Source: Gammaproteobacteria bacterium
GTDB taxonomy: Bacteria > Pseudomonadota > Gammaproteobacteria > JAGOUU01
Length of the DNA: 64,000 bases
Reading direction: 5' to 3'
Assembly: GCA_018061105.1 (NCBI GenBank)
Contig: JAGOUU010000001.1
Span: 8,425 to 72,424 of the forward strand
How positions within the stretch are numbered: the stretch's first letter is position 1; each line of letters starts with the position of its first letter. Of the stretch, positions 51,001 through 60,000 are shown piece after piece. Made by a program: the position numbers.

Positions 51001-54000
51001 TACTCAAGTAACCAAAAATCAAATTTTACTAGAATATGATCAATTAGATTTAAATAATAATTTTAATATAAAATTTCAAGAGTTAAAAAGCTTAGAAGCT
51101 GAGCAGACTCAAACGCAAGCATTGGGTTTTGAAGATAAAGAACAGCGAGGAAAAATTTTCAAGTTACAACAAGACATTCAGGCTAAAAAACAAGAAATTA
51201 CTTATGCTGAGCAACAACTTCAAATTAGTAAAATCTTATCACCTGCTGTGGGTATTGTTTTATTTAAAAGCAAAGATGATTTAATTGGTAAACCTGTCAA
51301 AGCTGGGGAAACCATGATGAAACTAGCCATACCGACATCGCAGGCTTTAGAGATTTGGCTTAATATTAATGATAATATTAATCTTAATAAAAACATGGAA
51401 TTGTATTATTATTCAAATAAGAATCCTTTTCGTGCTATAAAAGCCATATTAAATTACTATAGTTATGAAGCGTATGTTACTCCGCAAAAAAAAGTTGCGT
51501 ATAGATTAATTGCCAGATTTCCAGAAAATATTAATAATATTGATCAAGATTTAGTTATCGGGGATCAAGGGCAGGTTAAAATATATGGCCAAGAAAAGAT
51601 TTCTTTAGCAAGATATCTATTTCAAAAACCATTGATAAAATTACGTCAATGGTACTATAAATTAGGCTAATATAATTTAAGCTAATATAATTTAAGTAAT
51701 TTAATATGAGCGCTATATCAGAACAAATAAAAAAATTACCTCCCATTAAATCAACTGTTGAAATTACTTATGCAGGTATCGACTTGTGGCAAGATAAAGT
51801 CTGGATCTTGCTTGATAAGATGGTCAACAAATATTATTATTTAGGTAAAATAGAGTATGAGATAATCAATCGCTGGCATTTGGGTCAAGCAGATTTAATA
51901 GTTGAAGCTGTTAATCATGAAACTATTCATAACATCGATGCTAATAAAATAGATCAAGTATTTAAATTCCTATTTAGCAATAATTTACTACAGTTAAGCC
52001 ATGATGTTTTAAAGGCATTAGAATCCAGCAAAAAAAATAAATTTGTCACTGTGTTAAATTTGTTGAGTAAATTATTTTTTATCAAAATACCCCTGGCTAA
52101 TCCGGATAAGTTTTTACATTATGCAAAAGATTATGTAAGATTTTTATTTTCCCATAATTTTTTATATTTTATAGTAATACTCTTTTGTTTTAATCTATAT
52201 TTACTAGCTAATCAATGGGGCAGTTTCACTAGCAGTTTACCCAGCATGTCAAATACAGTAAATATTATTTTAATGTTACTGACAATTATTTTTACTAAAA
52301 TAATTCATGAGTCTGGCCATGCTTTTGCTAGTAAAATTTATAACTGTCGAGTCTCAGAAGTGGGGGTTAATTTAATTTTTTTCTATCCATTATTATATAC
52401 AGATGTTTCTAATACTATTTTGTTAAATGCTCAAAAACGACTGGTAGTCTCAACAGCAGGCCTAAGATTTGAATTGTATTTAGCAGTTATTGCTGGATTT
52501 TTTTGGCTATTATTACCAGAGAATAGTATTTTTAAAAATATTTTATTTTTTATTTCAGCCGTGTCTTGGGTAGTATCTTTAGGTGTAAATATGATGCCGT
52601 TTATGCGTTTCGACGGGTATTATATTTTTTCTGATTATTTTAAAATTAGAAATTTAACTCCGAGAAGCTTTGCTATCTTAAAGTATTATTATCGAAGATT
52701 TTTTTTCGGTCTTGATACAGTTTTACCAGAGAACTACGATAAAAACAAATTTAGATTCTTAGCTTCTTTTGCTGTTTTAAGTGCAATCTATAGAATATTA
52801 TTGTTTTTTTCTATTATATTATTTTTATATTACATAGAAATAATAGGAGGGGTATTATTTGTTATTGGCTTGAGTTTATTAATATTATTACCCATTGGCA
52901 AAGAATTATATAATTTATATACAATTCGCAGTAAATTTAATTTAAATAAAAACATTGTTATAACCAGTATTTGTAGTTTAATCATATTATTTCTAATATT
53001 TGTGCCATTTAATAATTACGTTTATTTACCTGCTGTTTTTTTTGCCAAAACACAAAGAATATATACGCCTTTAGTATCTAGAATAGATAAAATTAATATT
53101 CAATTAGATCAAGATGTTGTTGTAAATCAGCAATTATTATTATTAACAAGTTTAGACTTAGAAACTAAAAAAATTATTAATCAATTAAATTATGATGCTA
53201 CAAAACAAGAAGCTATAAGTGCTCAGATCTCAGAAAAAGAGCATAAGCAAACAGAGTTAAAACTAGCAAATCTCGAACAACAAAAAACATTAGGCAGTAA
53301 TATAGAAGCAAAAGCTAAGCAATTAGATATCTTAGCACCCATGGATGGTCGAGTAACGGCTATCTATAAGGGTCTAAATCCGGGATTATGGCTTGCTGAA
53401 AAAACATGGCTATTAGATATAGTCAATTTTCAAGAGCTACATGTTCAAGCTTTTGCTACGGCACAAGACAGAGAATATATGAGTCTTAATCGACAATCAA
53501 AAATTATCTTTATTCCTGATCAACTAGATCTGGCAGCTTGTGAGGTAACATTTATCTCAATAGCTACTGATCCGATAGATAAGATACCTAGTCAGCCGTT
53601 TATTGCTCTTGAACTGGCTGAAAGTAAGTTGCTAAACTCCAACTTATTATTATTTGCAGTTGATTATGGCGGCGATATAAATTTTAATATTGATCAAGAT
53701 TATAACTGGGTAGCTGTGGATTCTTTTTTTCCTGTGGAATTTTTTGCGGTTAAAAACTGTAATTATAACAATAGAACCATAAAGGGTGTGGTAAAGATTA
53801 AGGGTAACGATCAATCGTTAGTTGTAAAATTGTACAATAAATTTCAGCCTATGCTATTAAAAAGTAAATAGATATAGAAAGTAAATAGATATAGAAAGTA
53901 CGATGTTTGTGGTTATACTTAAATTTAATTATATATAATAATCATAATACTTAGACAATGAGCATACAAAGAAAACTAACAGAATTTATAAAATTTACAA

Positions 54001-57000: not shown

Positions 57001-60000
57001 TAGGTAGTCTGGTTTGTACGGTATGTACTACAGCTATAGTCCAAGCTGGAGCTTCACAGTGTCCTAATGCAGCTATATCGAGTTCAGGCCCTGCAGGCTT
57101 TTCTGCTGCTGTGAGTACACCTATAAAGTTTGATATAGCGCGCTACTATACTACGACATTGCAGGATTCTCCAACCTATTCTCTTAATCCGGCTCTCCCA
57201 GAGCTTCCTACTGGCTTAACACTTGATAAAAACACAGGTATTATTTCAGGTACGGTTGATAACTCTACTTCAGGTACAGCATCTGTCATGGTGTCAATTG
57301 GAAGTGGCACATTAAATATACCAATAACTTTTGCGATAGGTAATGGATCCTCTGGAAGTGGATCCGGCGGTGGAGCAGTTTCAATCTCTCCAACCGCGAC
57401 AGCGGAGCGTTGTGCTATTGGGTTTTATTCACCTACAGGCACAAATCAGTCTCAATCTTGTAGTCTATGTCCAGCCAACACTACAAACATAATCGTAGGA
57501 AGTACAATGTGTTCTCCTATAGATACAAGCTCTATTGGCACACCTTGTTCGCAAAATTTTTATTCGCCTACAGGTACTGATCAACCTACAGGTTGTCAAC
57601 AGTGTCCAACTGGTTACAGCAATGTTGGGATGGGTGGTACTATGTGTACCCTTGATTCACAACCTACTATAAAGGGAACTCCATGTAAATCAGGAGATTA
57701 TTCGCCTACTGGTACTGATAATCCGACACTCTGTCTTCCGTGCCCAAATGGTACTACAAATGGTCTTGTAGGGATGTCTCGCTGTGGTCCTGCGCAAAGC
57801 AATTCTCCACCGACTGGCTCTGCAATACAGTGCCTTAATAATACCTATTCACAAAACGGCTCAGGTTTTGCTCCTTGTGAGCCTTGTCCAAACAAGTGGG
57901 TAACTCCTGGGCCTGGGGCAACATCAATTTCAGAATGTACAGCTTGTGGTAATGGTAATATTGAAAGTCCTGAGGCTTGTGATTTGGGTACGATTTTTAA
58001 TGGCAAAGGGTTTGGATGTGCTCTTGACTGTACTGTTGATCAGACTTCTAATTGGAAATGTGTTAACCCGACTTCTACGCCTCATGATTATAAATATTGG
58101 ATTACAGACAAGGCTAATCCGGACAGCTTGTATAACTTATATCGAGATCTCACACGTTCATATGTTAACCCTATATTAACTACCCCGCCTCAAGGCCCTG
58201 GTTATCGTATTGATACAGGCACAGCTGAGAGCTATTGTAATCCCATTCAACCAGGTTGGGGGGAAGCTTGTAAACAATATACAAAAGATATAATTCAGTT
58301 TAAACAATTAAATAATAATAATTCGATAGCAACTGCTTTTAATGATCCCACGGGGCAGTCTACGTTTTGCGATAAATGGCCTAGGGTGTTTGATATCACG
58401 GCATCACCACCAGCACCATATCAGATAAAATGTATGCCTGATGCTGCGAATTATGTGAATTAATAGATTTTAATATTATCTTACTTTTTGATATAACTCG
58501 TGCAAATTATCAATCATATAAAAAGGTAAATATAAAACATTATTCTCAAATGTTAAATTTCTGGAAGAAATAATCACTCCGCTATTTGCTTTATTACACC
58601 AGCCGCCGCACTATTAGAGGCATTCGGTAAGCTGAGATTTGCCAGTTTTTTAAGTATTCTTCAAGTTTTCTATACATATTTTTATCCTATAATGAAATAT
58701 GACGCTTTATTTTTGAAGTCTAAATTAAACTAGTTTTACATGTCTGTATAATTAGGCCCACCGCCGCCCTCAGGTGTCTGCCAATTAATATTCTGTAAGG
58801 GATCTTTTATATCACAAGTCTTACAGTGCACACAATTTTGGCTGTTGATTTGTAAATAAGGTTTATTGTCTGCATTATATAAATACTCATAAACTCCAGC
58901 TGGGCAGTAATATTGCTCTGGGCCATGATACTCAGTAAAATTAATTTTTACGGCTAGATCTGGATTTAATAATTTTAAATGCGATGGTTGATGCTCATTA
59001 TGATGTGTATTAGCTAAAAATACTGACGATAATCTATCAAATGTAATTTTATTATCTGGTTTTGGATAATTAATTTTTTGGCTATTTTTTATTAAAGTTT
59101 TATGATCTTGATGGTGTCTTAAAGTCCAAGGTGTTTTGCCGTGTAGAACATAATAATCAAAAGCAGAATAGGCTAATCCTGGGAGTAAGCCAAAATTAAA
59201 GCTAGGCCTAATATTTCTTATTTTATATAGTTCTGAATTTATAACTGAATGATTGATGTTATCTTGATAATCAGTAATTTCAGTATTTAAAATATTATTG
59301 ATTTTAAAATTTTCTACTACAGATTGTGCTGCAATCATGCCTGATCTAATAGCATTATGTGTGCCTTTGATTTTAGCAATGTTAAGAAATCCTGCTGCAT
59401 CGCCAATAATTAATCCACCAGGAAAAGTTAATTTAGGGATGCTTTGATAACCGCCCTCGGTAATGGCTCGTGCGCCGTAGCTCAGACGTTCGCCGTTTTC
59501 AAATAAAGGCTTTAATTTTGGATGTAATTTAAATCGTTGGGATTCTTCAAACGGGCTAAAATAAGGGTTTTTATAATCTAAACCCACGACAAAACCATAG
59601 GCTATTTTAGAATCAGGTAAATGGTAAATAAAACTACCGCCATAAGTTTTATAATCAAGAGGCCATCCTATTGTATGTTCTACAAGACCTAATTGATGAT
59701 GCTTGGGATCTATTTGCCAGATTTCTTTGATTCCTAGACCATAAGTTTGAGGGGCTGAATGCTGAGCTAAATTAAAATAATTACTAATCTGTTTTGTGAT
59801 TGAGCCCCGGCTGCCTTCAGCTAAAATAACTTGCTTAGCATGGATTTCTACGCCTGGTTGGTATAAATCAGTTTTGTTACCTTGTTTATCTAGGCCAAGA
59901 TCATTTGTTTTTACACCATAGACTTGATTATTTTTTATTAAAGCTTGTGATGCTGCAAAGCCAGGGTAAATTTCTATTCCCATATTTTCTGCTTGATTTG

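Follow-up and report, generated by a model that had tools for sequence, protein, structure and literature searches.

What are the products of two adjacent genes in an uncultured gammaproteobacterium that combine repeat modules typical of eukaryotic surface proteins with a common C-terminal domain, and what might that domain do? The genes lie in a 64,000 nt stretch of DNA (hereafter the window) of contig JAGOUU010000001.1 (assembly GCA_018061105.1, forward strand positions 8,425 to 72,424), belonging to a metagenome-assembled genome (MAG) named 'Gammaproteobacteria bacterium' at NCBI and carrying KBD64_ locus tags. We call the proteins P1 and P2, and the C-terminal domain the tail. An original prediction had placed two open reading frames (ORFs) of 895 and 579 aa at 53958-58463, and both are present there with those lengths. 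We tentatively favor the explanation that P1 and P2 belong to a lineage-specific family of Sec-exported proteins in which the tail has a common function, most likely surface retention or assembly, or else recognition for export, with the N-terminal modules exposed. The features are listed below by position in the window.

53958-56645 (including the stop codon), + strand: P1, exported modular protein of 895 aa (ORF; Pfam Ephrin_rec_like in seven stretches, He_PIG in three, TNFR_ELAPOR1_6th and NCD3G)
53958-54053, + strand: P1 signal peptide, aa 1-32, ...NPMAFG/QSPPC, signal peptidase I type without lipobox (by eye from the translation)
54054-56072, + strand: P1 stalk (best Pfam stretches 187-231, 36-73, 539-581 and 623-690; borders approximate, from the cysteine pattern)
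56073-56165, + strand: P1 Thr/Ser/Gly linker, SSTT AGTT SGTTx4 AGTT GG (TRF and unit-by-unit reading)
56166-56279, + strand: P1 DUF4215/myxo-type cysteine-rich acidic repeat, single, aa 737-774, CGDLNVDAGEECDLG...GC..C......WKC (sequence pattern, profile A2)
56280-56642, + strand: P1 C-terminal domain, aa 775-895 (BLASTP to P2, AlphaFold2 model, HMMER scan)
56724-58463, + strand: P2, paralogue of 579 aa, MBP9721584.1, annotated by NCBI as 'putative Ig domain-containing protein' (ORF, Pfam)
56724-56816, + strand: P2 signal peptide, aa 1-31, ...SSITLA/QQSC (by eye from the translation)
56817-57944, + strand: P2 stalk (Pfam He_PIG 123-196 and Ephrin_rec_like in four stretches including 368-405; borders approximate)
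57945-58061, + strand: P2 DUF4215/myxo-type repeat, aa 408-446 (TIGR02232 E=0.012 at residues 407-440, below cut-off; alignment A2)
58062-58460, + strand: P2 C-terminal domain, aa 447-579 (AlphaFold2 model; no fold match)
53814-54994, + strand: strain-variable cassette, running from the final 58 nt of the upstream gene through the intergenic region into P1 (aa 1-346; blastn, protein alignment)

The C-termini of P1 and P2 are alignable, as had been proposed, with 39% identity over 166 aa (BLASTP E=2e-27), which is far beyond chance. The conserved pattern written out in the original prediction agrees with our alignment A1. Conserved cysteines number four in the domain itself and five in the repeat before it, counted up to and including its W-x-C motif. 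The four tail cysteines probably form two disulfides, and the presence of conserved cysteines together with signal peptides points to an oxidised extracytoplasmic protein. Similarity between P1 and P2 extends beyond the tail, with 37% identity over the signal peptide and first module and 36% over an internal cysteine-rich/He_PIG block. Since these parts are also common to both, P1 and P2 are true paralogues.

AlphaFold2 models of the tail were calculated from shallow family alignments in both cases. The P2 tail including the repeat (11 sequences) has a predicted local distance difference test score (pLDDT) of about 85-94 over residues 46-172, with the DUF4215-type repeat falling below 50, while the P1 tail alone (10 sequences) gave a mean pLDDT of 88.6 and a predicted template modelling score of 0.83. 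Both models have the same topology: three short helices are followed by a long one of 18-20 residues, on which the C.QY.KD...FKQLN motif lies, and then by another short helix and a beta-hairpin. The tail is thus predicted to be a compact domain of ~125 residues with four to five helices and a beta-hairpin.

The suggestion that this domain is undescribed has stood up to every library searched. The last ~125 aa gave nothing beyond E=0.05 noise in Pfam-A, NCBIfam and PHROGs, and nothing better than E=0.45 in sequence and profile searches of the PDB. The fold has no match among solved structures or the viral structures of BFVD, and the defence-system (PADLOC) and phage (PHROGs, BFVD) libraries returned no matches. 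Within the libraries searched the tail has no described relative. Pfam finds no match in the tail to the Por_Secre_tail domain of the type IX secretion system (T9SS), the autotransporter beta-domain, PEP-CTERM or LPXTG-type signals, and there is no terminal hydrophobic segment. The tail looks like a soluble helical domain.

The distribution of the tail is narrow. When 1.84 billion cluster representatives were scanned exhaustively by HMMER with a two-sequence profile, only 10 proteins reached E<=0.001, six of them from the same MAG, three from the related MAG CAZSRF01 and one from a related Logan assembly. Besides P2 (MBP9721584.1), the hits of the same MAG are KBD64_04965, 05265, 05275, 07795 and 08130; the six hits together with P1 make at least seven family members in this genome. 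They include a second tandem pair, formed by KBD64_05265 and a gene whose 3′ part is KBD64_05275, 76 bp apart. CAZSRF01 ('uncultured Gammaproteobacteria bacterium SRP170004_co1_145'), with three loci, is the only genome recovered by a pattern scan among 185,579 GTDB species representatives. The Logan protein (P0008, from SRR14234075) heads a tandem array of four short members, as found with an 11-sequence profile. Since the exhaustive search caught only the first gene of this array, the family is broader than the 10 representatives; its breadth may be underestimated and more distant relatives may exist. JGI metagenome contigs contained no match to the tail family, and within the window there are no further copies beyond P1 and P2. 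A word-index protein search with the two-sequence alignment returned no match, not even the query's own protein, which reflects a limit of the index and not absence.

The position of the tail is constant. In all 14 aligned members it is present once, directly after one DUF4215-type repeat, and the protein ends 1-9 residues past the last cysteine. By contrast the N-terminal parts vary: some members have ephrin-like repeats and He_PIG, some have cysteine-rich regions of other kinds or PAN-like cysteine motifs, and in others a Thr/Ala/Pro-rich linker alone separates the signal peptide from the repeat and tail.

We note two further observations on family loci. The four short genes of the Logan array (L010:3348-5810) encode proteins of 192, 185, 264 and 173 aa, two of which are divergent and lack the ITxxxxPDSL helix. 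In CAZSRF01 a 619-aa member (L007:8636-10495) is flanked by the PfkB-kinase and DapF genes; gene order in the window is likewise Rho, PfkB, DapF, LysA, with only about 95 bp (6344-6440) in place of the family gene. The absence of this member from the syntenic position indicates that related genomes have gained or lost family genes at different positions.

Comparison of closely related strains shows which parts of P1 and P2 are exchanged. One Logan contig (SRR11088367) matches the window with 100% identity. A sister strain is represented by contigs from SRR17318455 and SRR17318456, and the window was compared by blastn with its contig L004. In the flanks (the ETF-QO, ETF-beta and isochorismatase genes) there are 0 differences, while the diverged block from the second HlyD-like gene (HlyD2) to P2 (about 50200-58300) accounts for 190/215 differences. 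Synonymous divergence (dS) is 0.05-0.13 across HlyD2, the M50-HlyD gene, P1 and P2, compared with 0-0.008 in the flanks. Two indels of 11-15 bp lie at the HlyD1/HlyD2 (50278) and HlyD2/M50 (51666-51680) junctions. Where the window has 53814-54994, the sister strain has 1495 bp without nucleotide similarity detectable by blastn. This replaces P1 aa 1-346 (the signal peptide, about four cysteine-rich modules and one He_PIG) by 445 aa in a different order, with the signal peptide followed by He_PIG-like domains and then cysteine-rich modules. The cassettes of both strains are built of the same kinds of module, yet these are only 25-37% identical to any other module. In the shared parts the non-synonymous divergence (dN) of the tails is 0.005-0.007 compared with 0.028-0.039 for the stalk modules, so that the tails are four to seven times more conserved. 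The conserved tail therefore stands beside exchanged N-terminal parts.

Positive selection was considered as the cause of this divergence and rejected. In the diverged block dN/dS is 0.27-0.38, with no evidence of dN>dS, and dS is raised too. The raised dS favors import by recombination from a diverged donor. The paralogue encoded by KBD64_05265 (P0133) is identical in both strains, showing that the divergence is specific to the P1/P2 locus. The locus is a clean natural example of the diversification of surface proteins by recombination.

The modules in front of the tail are of known kinds. The GCC2_GCC3 and He_PIG repeats that had been seen in both proteins are confirmed by four Pfam scores that all lie above the curated cut-offs. 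Ephrin_rec_like (PF07699, formerly GCC2_GCC3; gathering threshold 23.1 bits) scores 131.3 bits in P1 over seven stretches and 76.2 bits in P2 over four, and He_PIG (PF05345; 24 bits) scores 51.8 bits in P1 over three stretches and 34.6 bits in P2 over one. The related models TNFR_ELAPOR1_6th and NCD3G also match P1. The only solved structures matched by the P1 sequence are human ELAPOR1 chains (best E=5.9e-8). In the P1 stalk three cysteine-rich blocks of ephrin-receptor/TNFR type (about aa 33-233, 326-408 and 521-600) alternate with three He_PIG Ig-like domains (about aa 234-325, 409-520 and 601-705). In P2 the order is a cysteine-rich block (about aa 32-113), He_PIG (114-205), a Gly/Ser linker (206-228) and cysteine-rich repeats (229-407). 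P1 contains 53 cysteines and P2 35, which look disulfide-forming. The two genes are on the + strand with a spacing of 78 bp. By eye, neither signal peptide has a +1 cysteine or the lipobox [LVI][ASTVI][GAS]C. We found no literature on ephrin-like repeats in Legionellales. The stalk modules are ordinary members of the Ephrin_rec_like and He_PIG families; what is new is a terminal domain on an adhesin-like modular exported protein.

The myxo-type CGDG...EECD repeat had also been proposed. Its pattern is present in both proteins, although the corresponding models stay below threshold. TIGR02232 (myxo_disulf_rpt; curated cut-off 20.8 bits) gives 15.4 bits (E=0.012) for P2 and no match for P1, and DUF4215 (PF13948) reaches at best E=0.63 among 11 tails. 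The pattern CGDG-x(5-6)-E-x-CD-x-G-N...GC-x(2-3)-C...W-x-C is found in 13 of the 13 complete family tails, and a search with the family profile A2 brings up two proteins that carry a precomputed PF13948 annotation, at 5.3e-8 and 6.9e-7. The recovery of annotated DUF4215 proteins supports homology of the repeat to DUF4215.

The linker of P1 is encoded, as had been noted, by a 12-bp tandem repeat (56086-56152, 5.6 copies by TRF) that reads as AGTT/SGTT units in frame. The further idea that this repeat drives length variation finds no support in P1, where the number of units is equal in both strains and 9 substitutions lie in three units. The linker of the KBD64_05275 gene has at least 11 units; the contigs of both strains end inside the tract and begin it differently, and variability of linkers elsewhere in the family is possible. 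Low-complexity linkers directly precede the tail module in P1, KBD64_05275, P0004 and P0005. Spacers of similar kind precede C-terminal anchors in other surface proteins.

AGTT/SGTT-type tracts are also present in orthologous exported proteins of ~525 aa that are unrelated to the tail family (10862-12430 of the window and L007:15452-17047), the tract in the second being very long. Their occurrence outside the family indicates that the xGTT linker is a lineage-wide feature of exported proteins.

The base composition of P1 and P2 differs from that of their surroundings. Their GC content is 42-44% compared with about 35% for the window, with a jump at 54-58 kb. The GC content at second codon positions is 0.56-0.58, and that at third positions (GC3) is 0.26-0.28, like that of neighboring genes. 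Being confined to second codon positions, the GC excess reflects an amino acid composition rich in Thr, Gly, Ser, Ala, Pro and Cys. The native GC3 speaks against a recent foreign origin, which the jump in GC might have suggested.

Directly upstream of P1 (49308-53871) are genes for two HlyD-like proteins and an HExxH/M50-like intramembrane metalloprotease fused to HlyD (KBD64_00315). The protease part matches the NCBIfam model daptide_HExxH at 4.9e-33, below its cut-off. There is no ATP-binding cassette (ABC) transporter gene between 49.3 and 58.5 kb, and neither an ABC nor a resistance-nodulation-division pump gene lies beside the three-gene cluster. Members of the M50-HlyD fusion family occur widely (Aliarcobacter, Nitrospirillum, Magnetococcales, Protochlamydia), and JGI gives the family the name 'putative peptide zinc metalloprotease'. 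The presence of PqqD in some members suggests small-peptide substrates and a role in the processing or export of peptides. Relatives with 56-62% identical M50-HlyD proteins keep the order isochorismatase, HlyD, HlyD, M50-HlyD, a slot, ETF-QO, ETF beta and alpha, and acyl-CoA dehydrogenase. The slot between M50-HlyD and ETF-QO (53872-58735 in the window) is a variable insertion site in these otherwise syntenic relatives. Here it holds P1 and P2; in L011/L012 it holds a 642-aa hydrolase-like protein with C-terminal membrane segments (L011:11191-13238), and in L013 (GCA_013558375.1) a 371-aa ankyrin-repeat protein (L013:11221-12448). None of the other tail-family loci examined has HlyD/M50 neighbors.

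A type IVB (Dot/Icm-like) secretion gene set occupies 19715-39429 of the window. It encodes a TraG/TraD-like coupling protein, DotM, T4SS_TraI, a T2SSE-family (type II/IV secretion) ATPase, three DotI/IcmL paralogues, DotH/IcmK and a TrbI-like protein. The bacterium is probably a host-associated, uncultured gammaproteobacterium with a type IVB system. The ankyrin-repeat gene in the slot of the relative from GCA_013558375.1, whose contig comes from an assembly of more than one million contigs, makes a host-associated lifestyle plausible.

How then might the tail act? On our tentatively favored explanation P1 and P2 would cross the inner membrane by Sec with cleavage of the signal peptide, be oxidised in the periplasm, and then reach the surface or the medium. 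The mature protein would be a rod of ephrin-receptor/TNFR-like modules alternating with He_PIG domains, followed by a flexible linker, one DUF4215-type repeat and the tail. The tail would provide a step common to all members, be it retention, assembly or recognition for export, and the N-terminal modules, which vary and are diversified by recombination, would face the host or the environment. Several points weigh against this. No partner, anchor or secretion machinery was identified for the tail, type II secretion having been examined within the window only. The signal peptides of P1 and P2 were called by eye, and the search for a fold relative covers solved and viral structures only. The estimate of rarity comes from the two-sequence profile, which is the weakest; the 11-sequence profile added three divergent members beside P0008. 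Moreover the short members (P0004, P0008-P0010 and the L010 array) consist of a signal peptide, linker and tail, and display nothing; they are no less compatible with a functional domain that stands alone than with an anchor. These same proteins would be free soluble heads if the tail were instead a functional head, that is, a module that binds a ligand or host receptor or mimics a signal, carried on a stalk of variable length. This is the main rival, and we take it seriously without expecting it to be correct. The invariant polar residues Q, N, S, Y and D of C.QY.KD...FKQLN.NNSI.TAF lie on or just after the long helix in the models and would suit a binding surface, and at least seven family copies are what effector-like families often show. 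However, P1 and P2 lack an N-terminal membrane anchor or beta-barrel to place the C-terminus at the distal end, and the fold searches gave no match to a lectin-like or cytokine-like structure. Conservation is highest in the tail and the N-terminus is strain-variable, the opposite of what is usual for a binding head in an arms race. A stronger form of the retention or export explanation, about which we are doubtful, is that the DUF4215-type repeat and the ~125-aa helical tail constitute an unrecognised surface-display or export tag of new fold. It would have its own family of cargo in a clade of uncultured, type IVB-carrying, probably host-associated gammaproteobacteria, the exposed N-terminal halves being replaced as cassettes between near-identical strains. 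If true, these halves would be a bacterial analogue of variant surface proteins.

The three remaining explanations place the origin or the export of P1 and P2 elsewhere. The close spacing on one strand of the HlyD, HlyD, M50-HlyD, P1 and P2 genes, and the joint divergence between strains of the block from HlyD2 to P2 against nearly invariant flanks, could mean that P1 and P2 are the cargo of a five-gene processing and export operon. Yet a single recombination tract explains the joint divergence equally well, and the synteny largely refutes the operon, as relatives keep the cluster and its flanks with another gene in the slot. Together with the other family loci that lack the cluster and a widespread M50-HlyD family whose PqqD-containing members point to small-peptide substrates, this makes such an operon improbable. 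A dedicated HlyD/M50 exporter for P1 and P2 is rejected on the grounds of the different slot content in relatives and the family loci without the cluster. Nor do the proteins resemble type I (RTX-type) substrates, as linkage to HlyD is not conserved and the proteins carry signal peptides and gave no RTX hits. Recent horizontal acquisition from a protist or animal host, the proteins acting as host mimics, also appears unlikely. The families Ephrin_rec_like, TNFR_ELAPOR1 and NCD3G occur mainly in eukaryotes, human ELAPOR1 is the closest relative among solved structures, and the GC content stands above that of the window; but the excess is wholly at second codon positions with native GC3, the He_PIG domains, DUF4215 repeat and signal peptides are bacterial features, and the family has diversified within the lineage. 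An ancient eukaryotic origin of the modules is possible. Finally, P1 and P2 might be substrates of the Dot/Icm-like system, whose genes lie 15-35 kb upstream in the same window. Dot/Icm signals lie at the C-terminus, which a conserved C-terminus would fit. Against this, Sec-type signal peptides and the large number of cysteines imply folding in the periplasm, which is incompatible with the translocation of IVB effectors from the cytoplasm, and the tail is predicted to be a folded domain rather than a short disordered signal. We consider this very improbable.

Comparison with known systems brings out what is distinctive in P1 and P2. They share with eukaryotic ephrin-receptor-like and ELAPOR1-type proteins (PF07699, PF23091) repeated CxxC-containing modules of about 45-50 aa, but they are bacterial, have a bacterial signal peptide and lack a transmembrane segment or cytoplasmic tail; their modules are interleaved with He_PIG, and they end in an unrelated novel domain. 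He_PIG, above threshold in both proteins, is the dystroglycan-type cadherin-like Ig domain of bacterial surface and adhesin-like proteins. Those proteins usually have long Ig-like arrays with known anchors or secretion signals, whereas P1 and P2 have Ig domains in alternation with cysteine-rich modules and carry no known anchor. The Myxococcus cysteine-rich acidic repeat (DUF4215/TIGR02232) corresponds to the unit CG[DN]G-x5-6-E-x-CD-x-G...GC...C....W-x-C that directly precedes the tail in every family member. In DUF4215/TIGR02232 proteins it forms arrays, whereas the tail family has a single unit, below curated thresholds and poorly predicted by AlphaFold2. Adhesive proteins that diatoms place outside the cell likewise contain DUF4215 repeats, which are of unknown function (bioRxiv 10.1101/2023.03.06.531300).

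Two further likenesses are of logic only. Like the C-terminal domain of T9SS substrates of Bacteroidota, the tail is a conserved domain of ~100 aa at the extreme C-terminus of many otherwise unrelated exported proteins. The T9SS domain is a beta-sandwich restricted to Bacteroidota, whereas the tail is helical with disulfides, has no Pfam match to a secretion tail and no known cognate machinery. Invasin/intimin-type adhesins resemble P1 and P2 in having an Ig-like rod and a small disulfide-containing C-terminal domain. In invasin and intimin this is a lectin-like head; P1 and P2 differ in lacking an N-terminal beta-barrel anchor, and the fold searches detected no similarity.

Should the tail serve in sorting or anchoring, it would single out an entire group of surface or secreted proteins in a little-known, probably intracellular clade and would point to a step of export or retention without described components. 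On a more modest reading it is a well-defined, confidently modelled new domain family, fit for deposition. New small domains are not rare in uncultured lineages. What makes this one a good candidate for follow-up is the combination of a confident model that has no relative among solved structures, sevenfold expansion, strictly terminal position and replacement of cassettes between strains.

Some minor features of the locus may be noted. The exact P1 protein is not in a collection of 15 billion proteins that does contain P2 and the products of the upstream genes from the same MAG, and the identical Logan contig stops at 55158, within P1; the P1 gene may be unannotated or differently called in the public record. 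A perfect 17-bp tandem repeat, AAAGTAAATAGATATAG (2.4 copies, 53861-53900), overlaps the stop codon of the M50-HlyD gene inside the strain-variable cassette, and just downstream of it there is a weak promoter-like site (53892-53919). Rfam has no match in the window, and promoter and terminator scans did not rise above shuffled background.

Elsewhere the window encodes other signal-peptide proteins with eukaryote-like or low-complexity regions. A 602-aa protein with a signal peptide (12456-14264) has two PAN/apple domains (PAN_1, 1.2e-10), a type of module typical of eukaryotes. PAN-like cysteine motifs are visible by eye in the N-terminal parts of P0002 and the product of the KBD64_05275 gene. 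Within the type IVB region a 1012-aa ORF is IcmB/DotO-like by eye, with no Pfam hit. A 236-aa proline-rich ORF on the - strand (41202-41912), without a signal peptide and with a GC content of 44.7% and native GC3 (0.24), lies between a porin-like gene and a branched-chain 2-oxoacid dehydrogenase operon, and may encode an effector-like protein.

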